NCBI GenBank assembly: GCA_021811265.1
Contig: JAJZPH010000001.1
Location: 16,779-80,778 of the forward strand
Length of the DNA: 64,000 nt
Reading direction: 5' to 3'
Origin: a bacterium
Lineage (GTDB): Bacteria; Chlamydiota; Chlamydiia; Chlamydiales; SM23-39
This document shows positions 16,212 through 29,420 of the stretch, one piece after another. Positions within the stretch are counted from its first letter, which is position 1; the number at the start of each line of letters is the position of its first letter. The notes below the pieces were generated by a model. That model was not told the DNA's origin. It saw nothing but the letters and a program-made list of their open reading frames with translations, and ran no database searches. A program made the translations under genes and the position numbers.

Positions 16212-18242
16212 ATGTCAGAGAGAGTTCTAATTACATCCGCACTTCTTTATGCCAATGGCGCTCTTCATTTCGGGCATATTGCAGGAGCCTATCTGCCTGC
16301 TGATTGCTATGCTCGATTTCGCAGGCTTTTAGGTGATGATGTTCTTTACATTAGCGGTTCTGATGAGTATGGAATTGCGATTACCCTGAGCGCAGAGCTT
16401 GCCCATAGGTCTCCCGAAGAGCATGTGGATATTTATCATGCACTCAACCAAGAGATCTTCCGCCAGTTGAATTTTTCTTTTGACCACTATTCGCGCACCA
16501 CATGGGAAGGTCATACCAAAACGGTGCAGGATTTTTTCAAGGTTTTACTGAAAAACGGATTTGTGGAAGAGAGGACCGAAAACCACCTATATTCCGAAGA
16601 GGAAAAGCGGTTTTTGGCCGACCGTTATGTGGTAGGCATTTGTCCTAAATGCGGCCATGAAAATGCAAGGGGAGACGAGTGTACAAAGTGTGGCTCTACC
16701 TATGAAGCTACCGATCTTAAAAACCCAAGGTCCAAGCTGACCGGATCTTGCCTTGTATTGAAGCCGAGCAAGCACTGGTATTATCGCTTTGACCTTTTCA
16801 AAGAAAGGCTGTCTGAGTGGCTATCCAAAAAGAATTGGAAGAGCAATGTGATGGCCTTTACTAAAAATTATCTGGATGATTTACATCCTCGTGGAATTAC
16901 GAGGGATTCTACTTGGGGAGTCCCCATTCCACTGGAAGGAACGGAAGGAAAAGTTTTTTACGTTTGGTTTGATGCTCCTATTGGCTATATTTCAGCAGTA
17001 AAAGAGTGGGCCGAAAAGGTGGAGCGTAATCCCGATCTTTGGAAAAAATATTGGTTGGATCCCTCCTGCAAGTTGGTCCATTTTATCGGAAAGGACAACA
17101 TTCCTTTCCACACTCTCTTTTTCCCCGCCATGTTGATGGGGCAAAGTCTTGAATATAAACTGCCCGACGAGGTTCCTGCCAATGAGTTTTTTACGCTTGA
17201 AGGAAGGCGTTTTTCCAAATCGGACAACTGGACGATTGATCTAGATGATTTTTTTAATAAGTATACAAGCGACCAGATTCGCTATTATTTAGCTGCCAAC
17301 GCTCCCGAGACGGCCGATACCGATTTTTCTTGGAAAGATTTTCAGCTGCGTTCGAATGGAGAACTTTTGGGAAAGTTGGGGAATTTCGTAAATCGCGTTC
17401 TTGTTTTTGCACACAACCATTGTGAAAAAAAAGTGCCAGAAGAGCCTTCGTTAAAAAGCGAAGATCATCAATTTTTACAAGAAATTGCGCGCCATGTAGA
17501 TCTTGCAAGAGAGTCTTTTTCAAATTTTCAGCTGAGAAGATCGACGCAAATTTTGATGGAACTGGCGCAGTTGGGAAATGTCTATTTTGATTTTCACAAG
17601 CCCTGGCTTCTTGTGAAAGATCCGACGCAAAAAGAGCGCATGTTTTCCGTGATCTATTGTTGTCTTCAATGCATCCAGAGTTTGGCATTGGTTGCATTTC
17701 CGATCATTCCCGACTCTGCACAAAAGATATGGGAAATGCTAGGAGAAAAAAGGCTTCTTTCCGAAGAGCTTTGGGATCAGGTGAAGACAAGGCTTCTTCC
17801 TCCTAAGAGAAACTTGCAACAAGTGCATATTTTATTTCGCAAAATCGAAGACAGCGAAATTGAAGAGGAGATCAAAAAACTAAAAACAATGTCGCAAAAA
17901 GAATCTTTCCCATCGGTTAGAAATACGATTCCTTTTGAAGATTTTGAAAAGGTGGACCTTCGCGTTGGAGAAATCCTTGGCGCAGAGCCGATCTCTAAAT
18001 CAAAAAAGCTCTTCAAGTTGAAGGTGGACCTTGGTTTTGAAACAAGGCAGATTGTCTCGGGAATTGCCCATCGTTTTGAAGCAGAATCGCTTATCGGGAA
18101 AAAAGTAGTGGTGGTTGCCAATTTACAACCAGTGACTTTGATGGGAGTAGAGAGCCACGGTATGATTTTAGTAGGGGGTTTGGGTGAAACGATGGAACTG
18201 CCCCTTCTTCAATCGTTGAAACCCGGGAGTAGCATTTCATAA
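16212..18242 (+). CDS. metG: methionyl-tRNA synthetase with a C-terminal tRNA-binding (EMAP/Trbp111-like) domain
   Basis: HFGHIAG (HIGH), zinc knuckle CPKCG...CTKCG, RFSKS (KMSKS), and a C-terminal DLRVGEI...KLFKLKVDLG domain. Confidence 0.97.
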   Translation: MSERVLITSALLYANGALHFGHIAGAYLPADCYARFRRLLGDDVLYISGSDEYGIAITLSAELAHRSPEEHVDIYHALNQEIFRQLNFSFDHYSRTTWEGHTKTVQDFFKVLLKNGFVEERTENHLYSEEEKRFLADRYVVGICPKCGHENARGDECTKCGSTYEATDLKNPRSKLTGSCLVLKPSKHWYYRFDLFKERLSEWLSKKNWKSNVMAFTKNYLDDLHPRGITRDSTWGVPIPLEGTEGKVFYVWFDAPIGYISAVKEWAEKVERNPDLWKKYWLDPSCKLVHFIGKDNIPFHTLFFPAMLMGQSLEYKLPDEVPANEFFTLEGRRFSKSDNWTIDLDDFFNKYTSDQIRYYLAANAPETADTDFSWKDFQLRSNGELLGKLGNFVNRVLVFAHNHCEKKVPEEPSLKSEDHQFLQEIARHVDLARESFSNFQLRRSTQILMELAQLGNVYFDFHKPWLLVKDPTQKERMFSVIYCCLQCIQSLALVAFPIIPDSAQKIWEMLGEKRLLSEELWDQVKTRLLPPKRNLQQVHILFRKIEDSEIEEEIKKLKTMSQKESFPSVRNTIPFEDFEKVDLRVGEILGAEPISKSKKLFKLKVDLGFETRQIVSGIAHRFEAESLIGKKVVVVANLQPVTLMGVESHGMILVGGLGETMELPLLQSLKPGSSIS

Positions 18243-21894: not shown

Positions 21895-21938
21895 CTTTAC
21901 TTTTAAAAGAACGCTCAGCTAAGATTACTTCTTCTATT

Positions 21939-22010
21939 TCCGGATTAGCTCAGTGGTAGAGCAGTTGACTGTTAATCAATTGGTCGTAGGTTCGAATCCT
22001 ACATCCGGAG
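21939..22010 (+). tRNA. tRNA-Asn (anticodon GTT)
   Basis: Hand-folded cloverleaf: acceptor TCCGGAT/ATCCGGA, D arm GCTC/GAGC, anticodon loop CTGTTAA, T arm GTAGG-TTCGAAT-CCTAC, discriminator G. CCA is not encoded. Confidence 0.9.
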
Positions 22011-22022
22011 TTTCGATTTAAA

Positions 22023-22059
22023 GGCAGTTAGAGTGAAGGCCCTAACTGCCTTTTGTTTT
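22023..22059 (+). terminator. rho-independent terminator after tRNA-Asn
   Basis: Stem ggcagttag / ctaactgcc followed by ttttgtttt. Confidence 0.7.
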
Positions 22060-22079
22060 CCGAGTTTTGGAGGCATTAA

Positions 22080-23273
22080 ATGGATCCAAAAAAGATAGAA
22101 AGTCTTCTCCATCATTATGAAAAAACCGTTACAAATTCTAGCCTCTATTATAAATCTCTTTCTAAAGAAGAAAAAATGAACTTGATGCGCGAAGCTGCGA
22201 CAATGGAAGGGGAGCCAGTTGTTAATTTTGAGACTTTGATCTTGAGAGAAGGGATCATAATGAGAGACAGGCAAGAAAAGATTCGAAATGAGATTCTTCA
22301 GCTATTAAACGCTCGGAAAATTCCATTCCATCACCTAATGCATCAGGAAACCATTCCTCTAAAAATTGCTCAAGAGATCAACGTGAAAATGAGTGAAACG
22401 ATAAAAAGTCTCATGATGCGTGGGAAAAAGAGCGGGAAAAATTATCTTGTCTGTCTGCGTGGAGATCAAAAAGTCGATAAGCATGCATTGTCTGCGTTGG
22501 TCAATGAAGCCTGTGAACTTGAGAAGATTGAGACCCTAAAAAAACGATTTGGCCTTGTTTTTGGAGGAGTTTGCCCTTTTGGTAAAATCCTTGGTGTCGA
22601 AGATGTGTTTTTTGATTCCAGTCTCAAACAATGTGATGAAGTTGTTGTTGGTTGTGGCATGCCAAACGAATCCATTCGTATGAAATTTGAAGATCTGGAT
22701 TCGTTAATTCACCCGAAATTCTTTGTAATTGCTGCGCATCCTGAGAAAGAAGAAAAACGCAATTCTGGAGTTTCTTATAGAGTAGAAGCTTATAGTAGCA
22801 AAAAACACGACTTGCATGAGATTGTAAAAGTGATCAACATTGCCTACAAGAGGCATGAATATCTCCAAAGAGAAAGAATCACTATCGAAGAGCTAAAAAT
22901 TATCTGTTCTGATGCAAAAAAGAAGCTTTATCTTTGTCTTTCCCCAGAAAACAAAATCTGTGGAACCATTCTTCTAGATTTTACTTATCCGCATCAAACG
23001 GAAATAGGTCTATTATCTATTGCGCCTTCTTGTCAGAAAATGAATCTCGGTGCGCTTCTCTTGGCTCATGCGGAAGAAGAAGCTTTTGAAAAGCATCATG
23101 TGAAAAGAGTTGTTATAGGAGTTGTCAAAACCTTACAAAAATTGATTTCTTATTACAAATCTCAGGGATATGTAGAAACAGGGGAGGAGGAAGACTTTCC
23201 CGAAAAAACGTGGGTGAGACCTGAATGTCGAAGTTGGGTCAAATGTTTAATTTTGGAAAAAAAACTGCAATGA
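22080..23273 (+). CDS. fusion protein: YbaK/EbsC-like aminoacyl-tRNA deacylase domain + GNAT N-acetyltransferase domain
   Basis: Residues ~75-215 read IKSLMMRGKKSGKNYLVCLRGDQKVD...GLVFGGVCPFG (YbaK pattern KxL...GGVxPFG). Residues ~225-397 have a GNAT-like beta4-alpha3 region, EIGLLSIAPSCQKMNLGALLLAHAEEEAF. GGAGG RBS. Confidence 0.7.
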   Translation: MDPKKIESLLHHYEKTVTNSSLYYKSLSKEEKMNLMREAATMEGEPVVNFETLILREGIIMRDRQEKIRNEILQLLNARKIPFHHLMHQETIPLKIAQEINVKMSETIKSLMMRGKKSGKNYLVCLRGDQKVDKHALSALVNEACELEKIETLKKRFGLVFGGVCPFGKILGVEDVFFDSSLKQCDEVVVGCGMPNESIRMKFEDLDSLIHPKFFVIAAHPEKEEKRNSGVSYRVEAYSSKKHDLHEIVKVINIAYKRHEYLQRERITIEELKIICSDAKKKLYLCLSPENKICGTILLDFTYPHQTEIGLLSIAPSCQKMNLGALLLAHAEEEAFEKHHVKRVVIGVVKTLQKLISYYKSQGYVETGEEEDFPEKTWVRPECRSWVKCLILEKKLQ

Positions 23274-23291
23274 AGCTCTGAGAGCATTCTC

Positions 23292-23594
23292 TTAAGAAAG
23301 CCTCAAATTCAAGCCTAGAGCCATGACTAAAGAAACAAGAGTATGCCAGGTAGGATTTCCCTTTTTTGACAGCGTTTTATAAAGGCTTTCTCTGCCCAAT
23401 TTAGCCTTTCTTGCTAAATTTCCTACTCCACCTTGTGCCTCTGCTACGTTTTTGAGAGCGGTTAAGAAAAGATATTGAGATTCCTCATCGCCTTTTAAGC
23501 TTTCTTCGAGAGCCGCATTGAGATAGGCAACAGCTTCGTCATGATCTTTTAGCTTTTCGAGAAGCCATTCTTGGTAGTTTTTATTTTTTTTCAT
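23292..23594 (-). CDS. addiction-module antidote protein (HigA-like HTH antitoxin)
   Basis: AVAYLNAALEE...LARKAKLGRESLYKTLSKKGNPTWHTLVSLVMALGL matches the antidote family that pairs with HI1419-type killer proteins. Confidence 0.8.
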   Translation of the reverse strand: MKKNKNYQEWLLEKLKDHDEAVAYLNAALEESLKGDEESQYLFLTALKNVAEAQGGVGNLARKAKLGRESLYKTLSKKGNPTWHTLVSLVMALGLNLRLS

Positions 23595-23902
23595 ATTTTT
23601 TTACCTCTCAATTGATACTCTTTTAAATACTCCATTGCCTTAGTGATATCCTTGGTTTGAGAACCTTTATCTCCACCGCAGAGAAGCAAAATTATTCTAT
23701 TTCCTATCTTGGAATAGTAAACCCTGATTCCTGATCCATAATGAATCCGAAGTTCTGAGATTCCATTTCCAAGAGCTTTACAGTCTCCAAAGTTTCCGAG
23801 CTTTAAACGATCGAGACGGGTGAGAATTTTTGCCCGGGTAAGCTTCTCTCGAATGTTTTCAAACCAATCAATGATTCTCTGTTTGCTTTTGCAAAGGATG
23901 AT
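23591..23902 (-). pseudogene. RelE/ParE-superfamily 'killer protein' toxin gene lacking a start codon
   Basis: Manual translation gives ...KQRIIDWFENIREKLTRAKILTRLDRLKLGNFGDCKALGNGISELRIHYGSGIRVYYSKIGNRIILLLCGGDKGSQTKDITKAMEYLKEY. The stop overlaps the antitoxin ATG (ATGA). The frame is open from 23950 but has no ATG, GTG or TTG upstream of the conserved region; ATC sits where Met is expected. Confidence 0.65.
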
Positions 23903-24612
23903 TCCAATAGATGGATTTTCTCCTTGTTTTTCACAATGGCTCGTTCCAGCTCATATTCAGTATGCTTTTCTCCGATTTCCAGAAAATCAAAAGCATAATC
24001 GTCTTTTACAGCAAGTTTTGCCTCGGGATACAAGTTAGTTGGAAGGTTCTTTTCAAAGTTTGACTGGCTACAGATAGTTTTTTCATAAGTGCCATTATCA
24101 ATCTGGTGTATTAGAACGCGGAATGACCACCCGTTTCTTTTGGCCATCCGCATGTAAAATTCTTTTTCAAGAGGGTCTTTACATTGTGAGAGAATGGCTA
24201 TGTTATGAGACCAGCTAATTTCTGCAGACAGTGTCTGCAATTTTTGGTTGTCCTTATAGGAAAGAAAGAAGTCCTTCATATTCCACAAGTTGCGCGAAGA
24301 AAAACCTCGCATTCCCGGAAATCCTTTTTGAAGATCCTCCGCTAGGTGTTCAACAATAGCATCTCCCCATTATCCTTCTTTTTGCTGCTCGTAGATAATT
24401 TTCCCAATATCTCGATATACTTCTATGAGTTCGTGGTTGATTGCGCTCATGGCTCTGGTCTGAGCAGCCTTGATTTTTGAACTGATGGAAGCTAAAATTT
24501 CTTTATAGCTGTTTGGAACAGCAAATTTATTATCTAAAACATTTATCGAACATTTCCGAGCAGATGCTTTTTTCTTTTTAGCCATTAGAGTTGCTCCCAA
24601 TTTCTTTCTCAA
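23803..24612 (-). pseudogene. DUF1016/YhcG-family PD-(D/E)XK nuclease gene, interrupted and 3'-truncated
   Basis: ORFs 24370..24612 and 23803..24312 are in the same frame, separated by an in-frame TAA at 24370-24372 (…EQQKEG*WGDAIVEHLAEDL…). Only the N-terminal ~half of the family is present before it runs into the toxin remnant. Confidence 0.7.
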
Positions 24613-24772
24613 ATAAAAGTCGAATGCCTTCGCATAGTAGCGCGGACTTATCTGTTTTCCGCTTCTCCCGAAGTCTTTTAATAAATAGCTCGTTTAAGCG
24701 CGTTTCTTCTTCATCAGTCATGTAGACGGTGGTTTTTGCTTTCTTTGGAGCGTCGGTATTTTTGATCGACAT
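24578..24772 (-). CDS. small ribbon-helix-helix-like protein (possible CopG/antitoxin-type regulator)
   Basis: TTVYMTDEEETRLNELFIKRLRE fits a beta-strand/helix RHH N-terminus pattern. ATG at 24772 with GAGG upstream. Weak call. Confidence 0.4.
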   Translation of the reverse strand: MSIKNTDAPKKAKTTVYMTDEEETRLNELFIKRLREKRKTDKSALLCEGIRLLFEKEIGSNSNG

Positions 24773-25086
24773 TTTTTGCCTCAAGATAAATTTATCGTTT
24801 AATGATGCCGATGATATTCAAAAAAAGTCAAATAGTTATGATTGTTAGTTGGTTAAACTTCTTGAAGTCGTAACGTTAAACAGGAAAAATTTCCGAGAAT
24901 TTCAAAAGGTTCCTGAACGTTCAGAAAATTCAAGAGACATGTAAAATTTTATGCCCCACTTATGCCTCACTTGCTGGCAAATAATGGCAAACCTTTGCAA
25001 CAGTCCCCAGCAATCAAAGTATTTCTAAACATTTAATTTTTTTGTTGTTATCGTTTGTGGTTTGTGGTGGTTGATGGTAGCAAAGG

Positions 25087-25133
25087 TGACTGTTAATCAA
25101 TTGGTCGTAGGTTCGAATCCTACATCCGGAGTT
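25087..25133 (+). repeat. orphan 3' half of tRNA-Asn (attR-like direct repeat)
   Basis: Identical over 47 bp to 21966-22012, from the anticodon stem to the 3' end plus 2 nt. There is no 5' half upstream. Confidence 0.85.
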
Positions 25134-25144
25134 CTGATTAAGAG

Positions 25145-25176
25145 GCACTTAAGAGATAACTTTTAAGTGCTTTTTT
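25145..25176 (+). terminator. terminator-like hairpin after the orphan tRNA half
   Basis: Stem gcacttaa / ttaagtgc followed by tttttt. It parallels the hairpin after the intact tRNA. Confidence 0.6.
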
Positions 25177-25235
25177 ATTTAGGAAATAGAGATGAGTGCC
25201 CATGCAATAACCTTTCTTTGGGGAGAGGATGTGAA

Positions 25236-26105
25236 ATGAGCTATAGGGTCTTTTTCTTCCTTGGAATATTTTTTACAAAAATCTTTGCTTCAGAATCTTT
25301 TATCATTCAAGAATTAGATTCCGGAAAAATAATTGAGCAAAAAGGGGATCTTTCTTCGCAAGTAAGTCCCTGTTCTACTTTTAAAATTGCTTTGAGTCTG
25401 ATGGGATTTGATTCTGGCATTTTGCAAAACGAAAACCTTCCTGTTTGGACGTATGAGGAGATCTTTTCTGCTTCTATTGGCCAGCAGCCGAATGCTTATG
25501 AGAAAGATTATCCATTGTTGCTGAAGAGTCAATTAGGTGGTCTTCCAGATAAAGAGAGAGAGAAAACAGTCGTTTTCCTTACGAGTCTTCACAAAAAATC
25601 TCATGATCCAAAAAGTTGGATACGAAATTCTTGTGCTTGGTATTCGCAAGCTGTAACCACGCAGATTGGATGGGAACAATTTCGTCATTATGTGCAAATG
25701 TTTCATTATGGAAATGAAGATATCTCGGGAGATGAAGGAAAAAATAATGGCCTTACCAACAGCTGGCTTTCTTCTTCTTTAGGAATTTCTCCTTTGGAAC
25801 AAATAGCATTTTTACAGAGCATCTTAACAAAAAAATTTCCTCTTTCTTCTCATGCATATGAGGAGACAAAGAAGATTTTTTTCCTAGAAACGCTTCCTAA
25901 TGGGTGGGGGCTTAATGGTAAAACAGGAACGGGCATTTCGCCTTCTGGCTATTCGATAGGATGGTTTGTGGGATGGATAACAAAAGAAGAAAAAACATTA
26001 TTGATCGCCTTTTTGATACAAAACGAAAAAAATGAAGATTTGCCATTAGGCCAACGAGCGAAAAATCGGGTAAAAGATCTGGTCTCTGGAGAGATCTTTC
26101 ATTAG
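25236..26105 (+). CDS. class D (OXA-type) beta-lactamase-like / BlaR-sensor-like penicillin-binding protein
   Basis: STFK, YGNEDISG, WL...ISPLEQ, KTGTG and GWFVGW motifs, with a signal peptide MSYRVFFFLGIFFTKIFA. I prefer the ATG at 25236 because the longer TTG start crosses the terminator hairpin. Confidence 0.8.
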   Translation: MSYRVFFFLGIFFTKIFASESFIIQELDSGKIIEQKGDLSSQVSPCSTFKIALSLMGFDSGILQNENLPVWTYEEIFSASIGQQPNAYEKDYPLLLKSQLGGLPDKEREKTVVFLTSLHKKSHDPKSWIRNSCAWYSQAVTTQIGWEQFRHYVQMFHYGNEDISGDEGKNNGLTNSWLSSSLGISPLEQIAFLQSILTKKFPLSSHAYEETKKIFFLETLPNGWGLNGKTGTGISPSGYSIGWFVGWITKEEKTLLIAFLIQNEKNEDLPLGQRAKNRVKDLVSGEIFH

Positions 26106-26402
26106 AGGCCCACGATCTTTTCAATCAAAAGCTCGAGGTGGAATAAGTTGTTTAGGAATGAAAAAGAAGATTTCAAAATTTGAAGATCATGCTTATCATC
26201 CGCTGGATTCATCGAAAGAGCAAAATTTAGTTTAGAAGGACCAAGCTTTTGAAGAAGCAGATCAGATTCTCAAGATCTATCCAAAAAGCGCAGATGGCCC
26301 AACTTTTATAACTTTTTTTATGCAAGCCGAGGCAGTGTCTTTCATGGGGACTCCGAAAAATATCTCATTGCTTTAGCATAGCGAGCAAGAAAGTGGACCA
26401 TA

Positions 26403-26424
26403 TATACACAAAGAACTTGGAAAA
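26403..26424. repeat. family-A element, solitary left arm
   Basis: tatacacaaagaacttggaaaa matches the first 22 nt of the family-A arm. No partner arm lies nearby. Confidence 0.6.
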
Positions 26425-26459
26425 AGAGAGAAGAAAAAATTTTAAATGTAACTAGAAAA

Positions 26460-26498
26460 TCTCTGAATACTCCCTCTCAATGGAGAGGTATTCAGAGA
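26460..26498 (-). terminator. hairpin terminator downstream of the small secreted-protein gene
   Basis: tctctgaatac...gtattcagaga (11-bp stem plus an inner ctctc/gagag), 16 nt after the stop at 26514 and followed on the minus strand by a T-rich run. Confidence 0.55.
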
Positions 26499-26513
26499 TT
26501 TGGGTAGGATACT

Positions 26514-26777
26514 TTATTTCTTTTGTGCTTTTGTAGAGGTGCATCCGCAATTTTTTGAGGTGTCTGCTTTTTTTTCTGTAGCTACCGGGGCTGTAGTCGA
26601 AACTTCTGTTTTTTCTGCAACGGAAACTACTTCTTCTTTAACTTGTTTTTTTACAGCACTTTCTTCTGAAACTGCTGTTGTTTTTTCTTGTACTGGCGCA
26701 GCTTCTGTAGCTTGTAGTTGGTAAGCGCCTAAAGATAGAAGAGCACTAGCGAAAAGAATAAAATTTAATTTTTTCAT
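26514..26777 (-). CDS. small secreted protein (hypothetical)
   Basis: Signal peptide MKKLNFILFASALLSLGAYQLQA, a low-complexity E/K/T/V-rich body, and a C-terminal CGC. AAGGAAAGG RBS. Confidence 0.6.
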   Translation of the reverse strand: MKKLNFILFASALLSLGAYQLQATEAAPVQEKTTAVSEESAVKKQVKEEVVSVAEKTEVSTTAPVATEKKADTSKNCGCTSTKAQKK

Positions 26778-26905
26778 ATTTAACCTTTCCTTGTTTGAAA
26801 TGATTAATTGTTTTTTTCAATCATAGAATGATTTACGTTACGTTTTTGATACTACGATGGCTGAGAGATTTATTGCAAGCGCAAAGGGAAGAGAGTCATT
26901 CCAGG

Positions 26906-26977
26906 TACACACAAAGAACTTGGAAAATCGGTTTCTGAAGCACGCCAAAAACCGATTTTCCAAGTTCTTTGTGTATA
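26906..26977. repeat. family-A palindromic element, 72-bp copy
   Basis: tacacacaaagaacttggaaaatcggttt-ctgaagcacgccaa-aaaccgattttccaagttctttgtgtata. Confidence 0.85.
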
Positions 26978-27043
26978 AGCCTTTTCACCACTACTGGAGA
27001 ATTTTTTTCGATGATTTGTTCTTTACCTCAAGTTCATCTTTAT

Positions 27044-27215
27044 TAACGCGAGTTTTGGATAAGGCTCTCATGAAAAAGGGCTATCTTTCAGCGATTTAAC
27101 AGCCAAAATTGGGAAAATAGAGGTCGAAGGCGCCCTCATGTTCTCAATTTTGGCTGTTAAATCATCTGAAATATCTGCCTTTTTCATAGAGCGGCATATC
27201 CAAAACTCGCGTTTA
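27044..27215. repeat. family-E palindromic element (~170-bp long hairpin)
   Basis: Terminal inverted repeats taacgcgagttttggata / tatccaaaactcgcgtt, a middle pair ctcatgaaaaagggc / gcctttttcatagag, and an inner perfect 16-bp pair ttaacagccaaaattg / caattttggctgttaa. Confidence 0.75.
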
Positions 27216-27341
27216 TTAGAGAGATATTCTCATTGGAGATCTATAGGGAAAAAGCATCAATCTTCTTGAAAAAGCAGATAGCAGAATAGCTTGAGAGATG
27301 GTAAAATACACTCTTGCTGGCAATTGAAAAGGGCGAGGTCA

Positions 27342-27803
27342 ATGCGACCCTTCCACTTTAAGAAAAAGAGCTTTCGATTCTTGAGTTTTTTTTTGAGATT
27401 TCAGGCAAAACCCCGAAGGAAATCTTGCAAACGCTATGAGGGAGAGCAGTACAATCTTCAAGAGATCTACGAAGCGTTAAATCGCCAATATTTTGGAAAC
27501 AAACTTTGTCTTGGTATTACCTGGTTTGGCAACAAATGTCCACCTGCGAGTAGGTGTGTGGTTTTTGGCGCCTATCATGAGCGGTTGCGTCTGATCAAAA
27601 TTCATCGTAGGCTCGACCGAAAAGAGATTCCTTTGCATTTTGTTTCATTCATTGTCTATCACGAAATGTTGCACCACGTGCTGCCTCCTATTTCTGGGAG
27701 GGGCAATCGAAGATCGGTGCATCACCATGCTTTTCGCGAGAGGGAAAAAGAGTTTTTCCACTATGCATTGGCCCAAGAGTTTCGAGGAAAGTTTCGGGTC
27801 TAA
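27342..27803 (+). CDS. SprT-like / DUF45-type zinc metalloprotease domain protein
   Basis: HEMLHH (HExxH) after a YFGNKL...ITW N-terminal pattern. Start uncertain (ATG 27342 or TTG 27291). Confidence 0.55.
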   Translation: MRPFHFKKKSFRFLSFFLRFQAKPRRKSCKRYEGEQYNLQEIYEALNRQYFGNKLCLGITWFGNKCPPASRCVVFGAYHERLRLIKIHRRLDRKEIPLHFVSFIVYHEMLHHVLPPISGRGNRRSVHHHAFREREKEFFHYALAQEFRGKFRV

Positions 27804-29271: not shown

Positions 29272-29338
29272 CTTTTCTTTCTCTCAAGCTCTTTTTTCTA
29301 AAAATACCAAACGTAGAAATCTTGTATATTTTTTTCTT

Positions 29339-29361
29339 TATACCCAAGTTCTTTGGGTATA
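29339..29361. repeat. short palindrome related to the family-A arm end
   Basis: tataccc-aagttcttt-gggtata; ccaagttctttgggtata differs by 1 nt from the family-A right-arm end ccaagttctttgtgtata. Confidence 0.4.
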
Positions 29362-29420
29362 GATTTTTTTTCTCTTTTTCTGTAATTTTTTAAGAGAAAA
29401 GTTTTTTTGAGGGAAACCAA

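Follow-up and report, generated by a model that had tools for sequence, protein, structure and literature searches.

The question raised by this locus is whether a gene that joins a tRNA-editing domain to an acetyltransferase encodes a working protein and, if so, of which kind. The locus lies in a stretch of 64,000 nucleotides (positions 16,779 to 80,778 of contig JAJZPH010000001.1, assembly GCA_021811265.1), here called the window, and the gene is an open reading frame (ORF) of 397 amino acids (aa), protein P0001, at positions 22080–23273 of its forward strand. In a sequence-only reading of the window, this ORF had been described as a covalent fusion of a YbaK-like domain and a GNAT acetyltransferase in a mobile context, for which no example was known, and an aminoacyl-tRNA-acetylating toxin resembling TacT and AtaT had been proposed as one possible product. 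According to the present analysis, two genes that are normally separate have been fused head to tail in this lineage; the resulting gene is located in mine-drainage DNA of an uncultured, Chlamydiota-like bacterium, on a 3-kb islet at tRNA-Asn that has decayed. What is new is the domain architecture; the component families are known. The complete interpretation, namely that two active enzymes are genuinely fused and serve quality control or detoxification rather than act as a toxin, has about an even chance of being correct.

The ORF and its strong ribosome-binding site were confirmed at the coordinates given in Table 1, and both proposed domains were supported by concordant results from Pfam, profile searches against the Protein Data Bank (PDB) and AlphaFold2. 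Pfam matches were tRNA_edit (PF04073) at aa 95–207 (E-value 4.6e-19; 69.1 bits, cut-off 25.5) and Acetyltransf_1 (PF00583) at aa 272–364 (E-value 3.6e-11; 43.8 bits, cut-off 20.7). With an alignment of 65 relatives as input, AlphaFold2 gave a model whose mean predicted local distance difference test score (pLDDT) was 91.6, with values above 95 for each of the two domains. When compared with the PDB by Foldseek, the YbaK half was most similar to YbaK (1dbx; template-modelling score, TM, 0.82), ProX/ProXp-x (2cx5 and 2z0k; 0.83) and APE2540 (1wdv; 0.86), and the GNAT half, which comprises the C-terminal ~170 aa as had been proposed, to PaiA (1tiq; 0.79), 9mto (0.80) and SpeG (~0.7–0.77), with PA1377 and RimI-like proteins also within 0.70–0.80. 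It is thus virtually certain that the protein consists of a complete YbaK-type domain and a complete acetyl-CoA-type GNAT separated by a short flexible linker. NCBIfam detected both halves far below every equivalog cut-off (YbaK_EbsC, TIGR00011, 48.8 versus 153.25 bits; RimI, 27.8 versus 86 bits), and therefore neither half is an orthologue of a named enzyme.

The key residues are also present. The K-S-L motif stands at residues 109–111 and, in the profile alignment, Lys109 is aligned with the catalytic Lys46 of Haemophilus influenzae YbaK (1dbu), so that the catalytic lysine is retained; the segment G162-G-V-C-P-F-G168 is aligned with the GGISPLG loop of the same protein, in agreement with the YbaK/ProX/EbsC pattern noticed from the sequence alone. 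In the GNAT half, motif A is Q319-K-M-N-L-G324, in which the second glycine is invariant in the family, and Tyr359 is present. Of the columns conserved in at least 85% of the relatives, computed without the fusion protein, the YbaK half has kept 20 of 23 and the GNAT half 28 of 30, the changes being conservative. Pairwise ratios of nonsynonymous to synonymous substitution (dN/dS) against the nearest relatives were ~0.04–0.17 with saturated dS, which shows apparent long-term purifying selection on both halves and is uninformative for the time elapsed since the fusion. From these data, both halves are probably active enzymes that have kept their ancestral chemistry.

The fusion was found nowhere else. 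A word-index search of a collection of 5.8 billion clusters returned only the fusion protein itself, whose 90% cluster has a single member. When 1.84 billion representative proteins were scanned exhaustively with P0001 by HMMER, 532 hits were obtained, and no other YbaK–GNAT fusion was present among the best 150, which were inspected: each match covered either aa ~61–220 or aa ~230–397, never both. Multi-domain proteins among the matches were few, and comprised fusions to aspartyl-tRNA synthetase (AspRS), one fusion to a UPF0227 esterase and tandem GNATs. Protein P0005 (4007 aa, third in rank, with 21 matching stretches) was considered as an array of YbaK domains and rejected, since it is a FIVAR-repeat protein and its score a repeat-driven false positive. 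A tblastn search of plasmids detected no fusion and only distant YbaK genes, scans of genome contigs with P0001 and with the GNAT-family alignment detected no relative, and the literature search gave nothing relevant on a YbaK–GNAT fusion or on a bacterial AspRS–YbaK fusion.

In other Chlamydiota, the nearest relatives of the two halves are encoded separately as single-domain proteins, and each of them spans one whole domain, so that only ~12 linker residues are new between them. For the YbaK half, the closest is the stand-alone protein P0003 (163 aa; 69% identical to aa 66–218), which extends from the equivalent of Met61 to about residue 220; for the GNAT half, these are the stand-alone proteins P0004 and P0161 (167 aa each; 59–60% identical to aa 232–395), and the start of P0004 corresponds to about residue 232. 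The linker DNA aligns loosely with the region around the ribosome-binding site and start codon of the GNAT gene that stands alone in locus L008, which weakly suggests that the linker may be a former intergenic spacer, read through after the loss of a stop codon. At the other end of the protein, aa 1–60 had no counterpart in the exhaustive protein scan, in the profile search or in tblastn searches against all collected loci. The stand-alone YbaK relatives begin at the equivalent of Met61, and the alternative start codon ATG 22260 is preceded, 5 nt upstream, by GAAGGGA; this ATG is probably the ancestral start. A remnant of an upstream gene was also considered for aa 1–60 and rejected, as only 6 of 13 residues matched the nucleoside deoxyribosyltransferase-like gene of locus L003 (E 0.077, not significant).

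The resemblance of the linker DNA to a former ribosome-binding site and start region would also be expected from an evolutionary accident, in which the loss of a stop codon or a small deletion merged two adjacent cargo genes into a product that is not expressed, or whose halves are independent or inactive. Some further observations favour such an accident, and some weigh against a fusion of two active enzymes. The fusion is a singleton in all databases searched, its neighbours are pseudogenes, and the islet is decaying, with a start-less toxin gene, a broken nuclease gene and no integrase. The terminator hairpin of tRNA-Asn starts inside the left repeat of the islet and ends ~20 nt upstream of the ORF, and the promoter scan detected no sigma-70-like promoter on the forward strand from the tRNA promoter region to the end of the ORF; because of this position of the hairpin, expression of the full-length protein would need terminator read-through or an unrecognised promoter. 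The fusion sequence was present in no RNA run in the Logan search. Despite its pLDDT of 92, the model had a predicted TM score of only 0.61 and thus no confident interdomain interface, which, as far as the model goes, argues against an evolved interface between the halves. The first glycine of motif A is replaced by asparagine, as in most members of the GNAT family (QGKNLG, QKQNLG). In addition, the six loci of GNAT relatives that were compared are monocistronic and in varied chromosomal settings, and when ~20 related loci were scanned in six frames with hidden Markov models of both families, the two families occurred together in none of them save the window and identical copies. GNATs located 2–4 kb from the YbaK relatives of loci L018 and L023 were tried as family members and rejected, with 25 and 17 bits versus more than 200 for members. 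As there is neither a conserved neighbourhood nor a second fusion, functional coupling would rest on this single protein; a singleton in the decaying islet of an uncultured organism may be an accident, and its halves may not cooperate.

On the other hand, an accident of this type would not readily account for two full-length domains with nearly all conserved positions kept, nor for a frame of 1.2 kb that has stayed open in DNA of 38% G+C behind a strong ribosome-binding site. Besides, two metagenome runs from mine drainage, assembled independently in Logan, both contained the identical sequence with zero differences, and its depth equalled that of the flanks. An artefact of assembly is thereby excluded, and the islet must be fixed in the population sampled. 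An accident is accordingly considered unlikely, although it is the least unlikely of the rival explanations. As to the fusion of two active enzymes, functional coupling between its halves is itself doubtful.

The toxin proposed before would hold the aminoacylated CCA end of a tRNA in its YbaK domain and acetylate the alpha-amino group of the aminoacyl-tRNA with its GNAT domain, as a TacT- or AtaT-like poison, a defence protein or an effector. Both domains are indeed intact and covalently joined, the gene lies in a mobile islet, GNAT toxins with such chemistry exist, and the protein resembles TacT, AtaT, ItaT and KacT in having the GNAT fold and, possibly, a connection with the aminoacylated end of tRNA. 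The remaining data were unfavourable. The cognate antitoxin is absent: no adjacent co-oriented ribbon-helix-helix (RHH) or DUF1778 protein, nor any co-oriented small gene, accompanies the fusion, which has tRNA-Asn and the terminator upstream and a convergent HigA-type antidote downstream. This antidote is of the helix-turn-helix type, not RHH, and belongs with a decayed, start-less HigB-like gene, not with the GNAT. The RHH-like ORF that had been noticed 1.3 kb away is the 68-aa ORF of Table 1, which is encoded on the opposite strand and matched no family even at E ≤ 10. The relatives of the GNAT half are unpaired chromosomal genes, and none of the six loci mentioned above has a small antitoxin-like partner gene. 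No structure of the TacT/AtaT type appeared among the top 60 profile hits in the PDB (E ≤ 0.005) or the top 50 hits of Foldseek, no toxin model of NCBIfam was matched, and PADLOC gave no match. Finally, the YbaK half had been taken for a module that binds aminoacyl-tRNA; since Lys109 and the oxyanion loop are kept, it is expected to hydrolyse aminoacyl-tRNA and not just to hold it, and this works against a role in substrate holding and makes the protein differ from the known toxins also in an extra hydrolytic domain. A toxin, defence protein or effector of this kind is very unlikely, and there is good reason to conclude that the fusion protein is not the toxin of a toxin–antitoxin system.

The YbaK half belongs to a clade of the Planctomycetes–Verrucomicrobia–Chlamydiae (PVC) group with stand-alone genes in metagenome-assembled genomes (MAGs) of Chlamydiales and Verrucomicrobia. 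The fold (TM 0.82–0.86), the catalytic lysine and the GG-x-x-P-F/L-G loop are those of the INS/YbaK trans-editing deacylases (YbaK 1DBU, ProXp-x 2CX5/2Z0K, lpg1207 3OP6, APE2540 1WDV), although the nearest solved relatives, lpg1207 (3op6) and ProXp-x (2cx5), have only ~20% identity and any solved member 18–22%; 2cx5 ranks second among the structural relatives. In contrast to YbaK proper, a Cys-tRNA(Pro) deacylase for whose model the score was far too low, the fusion protein falls in this separate, AspRS-associated clade. Members of the INS superfamily other than INS have been described as single-domain proteins (PMC11295145), unlike the present protein, which carries a GNAT. In the same review, ProXp-x acts on 2-aminobutyryl-tRNA (Abu-tRNA) and FthB on fluorothreonyl-tRNA, that is, non-protein amino acids are removed.

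The closest multi-domain relatives are metagenomic AspRS-type synthetases (PF00152, some with GAD; e.g. P0016, P0021 and P0110) that carry a member of the clade as a C-terminal appendage with 35–41% identity and share the motifs GKKSGKN and GGVPPFG. They differ from the fusion protein in that their partner is a class II synthetase, in a cis-editing-like arrangement, and not an acetyltransferase. Stand-alone members of the clade are labelled 'nondiscriminating aspartyl-tRNA synthetase' in IMG. As a separate observation, the AspRS-type class II synthetases with a C-terminal YbaK-like domain form a sizeable clade (P0016, P0021, P0038, P0002, P0110 and P0119), with both archaeal-type (~600 aa) and bacterial-type (GAD) enzymes. 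To our knowledge, AspRS has no known editing domain, and the appended domain may be an uncharacterised cis-editing module.

Neighbourhoods of the stand-alone YbaK relatives vary and often concern amino-acid handling. In locus L019 (4359–5486 and 5549–7117), a relative with 53% identity follows, after a gap of 13 nt, the gene for an amino-acid exporter of the LysE type, with RidA and a LysR regulator adjoining, a cluster that looks like an amino-acid stress operon. The gene order in L018 is GNAT, nucleotidyltransferase, Asp/Glu racemase, HAD hydrolase and then YbaK. In L003 (5474–6492), the nucleoside 2-deoxyribosyltransferase-like gene shares its last 4 nt with the gene of the closest YbaK relative (69% identity), which is followed by two HAD hydrolases, with McsA and McsB nearby. 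Other stand-alone relatives are monocistronic. Judged by gene content, these neighbourhoods would fit amino-acid stress or detoxification.

The family of the GNAT half comprises ~40 clusters, all of 145–206 aa and single-domain, with 38–60% identity over the whole half, and all organisms of named source are Chlamydiota or Chlamydiales MAGs. The invariant positions N-x-A-Y, LYLC, ICGT, E..EAF and Y..GY are common to the family and the fusion protein. Annotations are limited to 'GNAT family N-acetyltransferase' or 'RimI-like'. Unlike the fusion, none of the stand-alone GNATs of Chlamydiota (P0004, P0161, P0166 and others) is fused or adjacent to a YbaK-like gene.

Taken as a fusion of two active enzymes, the protein would combine two reactions. 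The YbaK half would hydrolyse a mis-acylated tRNA and the GNAT half would N-acetylate a primary amine. Given the association of the YbaK clade with AspRS, the substrate proposed for the YbaK half is probably a species linked to tRNA-Asp or tRNA-Asn, or one carrying a non-protein or D-amino acid. If the halves are coupled, the wrong amino acid would be removed from the tRNA and then N-acetylated, preventing its re-activation. Should the halves cooperate, this order of deacylation and N-acetylation is favoured because the YbaK domain is hydrolytic, the neighbourhoods are related to amino acids and the known biology fits. Its most specific form, 'edit-and-cap' on one polypeptide, in which a D-amino acid (e.g. 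D-Asp) or an analogue is stripped from the tRNA and acetylated at once by the tethered GNAT, is more doubtful than coupling as such. A YbaK-guided acetyltransferase acting directly on aminoacyl-tRNA or on aminoacyl-nucleoside antibiotics would be a less likely variant of the coupled scheme.

Detoxification of amino-acid analogues or D-amino acids by N-acetylation is established for GNATs, as in yeast Mpr1 and Hpa3/DNT, bacterial MddA/MnaT, and PAT. The proposed logic, hydrolysis of a mis-charged tRNA and neutralisation of the amino acid, resembles that of these acetyltransferases placed beside deacylases such as DTD, ProXp-x, FthB and CtdA. We know of no case of both activities on one polypeptide. 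In the present comparisons, no specific sequence relationship of the GNAT half to Mpr1, Hpa3/DNT, MddA/MnaT or PAT was shown. Each of the two activities, tRNA deacylation and amino-acid N-acetylation, is established separately (PMC11295145; PMC10018355).

Two further explanations assign other chemistry to the same pair of folds. The crystallised complexes of YbaK/ProX proteins with aminoacyl-sulfamoyl-adenosines (2z0k, ProX with alanyl-sulfamoyl-adenosine, AlaSA) suit a resistance function against aminoacyl-nucleoside or aminoacyl-adenylate antibiotics of the processed microcin C or puromycin kind, in which the YbaK pocket would bind aminoacyl-adenosine and the GNAT would acetylate its alpha-amine, as do the C-terminal domain of MccE (MccE-CTD), RimL and puromycin acetyltransferase (PAC). 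RimI-like enzymes are among the nearest named relatives of the GNAT half, and the gene is cargo of a mobile islet just outside which a class D beta-lactamase-like gene is found. Nevertheless, the generic GNAT fold is all that relates the sequence to MccE/RimL or PAC, the known cases make do with a GNAT that stands alone, the presumably intracellular lifestyle limits exposure, and the YbaK–GNAT linkage is not conserved; resistance is rated slightly below even the toxin. A tRNA-dependent synthase of N-acyl-amino acids or peptide bonds with aminoacyl-tRNA as donor is the least credible of all and extremely improbable. The one point in its favour is that a fold that binds aminoacyl-tRNA stands next to an acyltransferase fold, whereas the GNAT belongs to the acetyl-CoA type (Acetyltransf_1, motif A), none of the families FemAB, FeeM, DUF2156 and L/F-transferase was matched in Pfam and NCBIfam, and the catalytic residues of the YbaK domain are intact.

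The features of the gene and its surroundings are detailed in Table 1. The mobile context suggested earlier corresponds to the remnant of a mobile element bounded by 77-nt repeats of tRNA-Asn; the two copies are 88% identical, and no integrase is encoded in the ~3-kb islet between them. In metagenome run X2, a 387-nt contig joined position 21962 to position 25101 with 230 other letters in between; with only 23–25 nt matching on each side, it was rejected as probably derived from the tRNA genes of another organism. The G+C content is 37–39% over positions 22000–27500, past the right repeat, versus 41–47% in the flanks beyond, and the foreign region may thus reach past the right end of the islet, as far as about 27500. 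In this low-G+C DNA, 16 nt past the right repeat, lies a gene (25167–26105) for a class D beta-lactamase-like protein or one with the transpeptidase domain of a penicillin-binding protein (Pfam Transpeptidase, E 3.8e-37). Palindromic repeats are clustered at 26400–27220, namely I2 (32-nt arms, 94% complementary, 26906–26977), I5 and I1 (40-nt arms), with a related copy at 29329–29364.

Table 1. Features of the fusion gene and of the tRNA-Asn islet, in coordinates of the window
Feature	Position	Strand	Basis
tRNA-Asn (GTT), islet integration site	21938..22011	+	ARAGORN
Left copy of 77-nt direct repeat (tRNA 3' half + 19 nt), attL-like	21954..22030	.	Repeat search
Terminator-like hairpin and T-run (12-bp stem 22020-31 / 22042-53)	22020..22059	+	Read from sequence; partial stem in scan
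Ribosome-binding site GGAGG, 6 nt 5' of ATG 22080	22069..22073	+	Read from sequence
Fusion ORF P0001, 397 aa, stop codon included	22080..23273	+	ORF call, Pfam, AlphaFold2
N-terminal extension, aa 1-60	22080..22259	+	Helical in AlphaFold2 model, pLDDT 62-80
YbaK/INS-superfamily (tRNA_edit) domain, aa 61-220	22260..22739	+	Pfam, NCBIfam, PDB profiles, Foldseek
Linker, aa 221-231 (~12 residues), disordered, pLDDT ~54	22740..22772	+	AlphaFold2 model
GNAT acetyltransferase domain, aa 232-397	22773..23270	+	Pfam, PDB profiles, Foldseek
HigA-type addiction-module antidote (dnstrm_HI1420), 100 aa, convergent to fusion gene	23292..23594	-	Pfam, E 7.5e-16
Broken DUF1016/YhcG nuclease gene, two ORF pieces	23803..24612	-	Pfam
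68-aa ORF, no family match	24578..24784	-	Pfam and other family searches
Right repeat copy (displaced tRNA-Asn 3' fragment), attR-like islet end	25075..25151	.	Repeat search

The fate of the amino acid released by INS/YbaK trans-editing factors has so far not been considered part of the system, and the natural joining of YbaK to an acetyltransferase hints that the proof-reading of tRNA and the detoxification of metabolites may be connected, in a way open to experiment. Even if the fusion were a mere accident of islet decay, it would still document the birth of a multi-domain protein on the remnants of mobile elements in reduced genomes. It also draws attention to the YbaK-like domains that AspRS enzymes carry, a whole clade as yet uncharacterised. 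If 'edit-and-cap' were true, this protein would be the first in which tRNA proof-reading is physically coupled to the chemical neutralisation of the offending metabolite.

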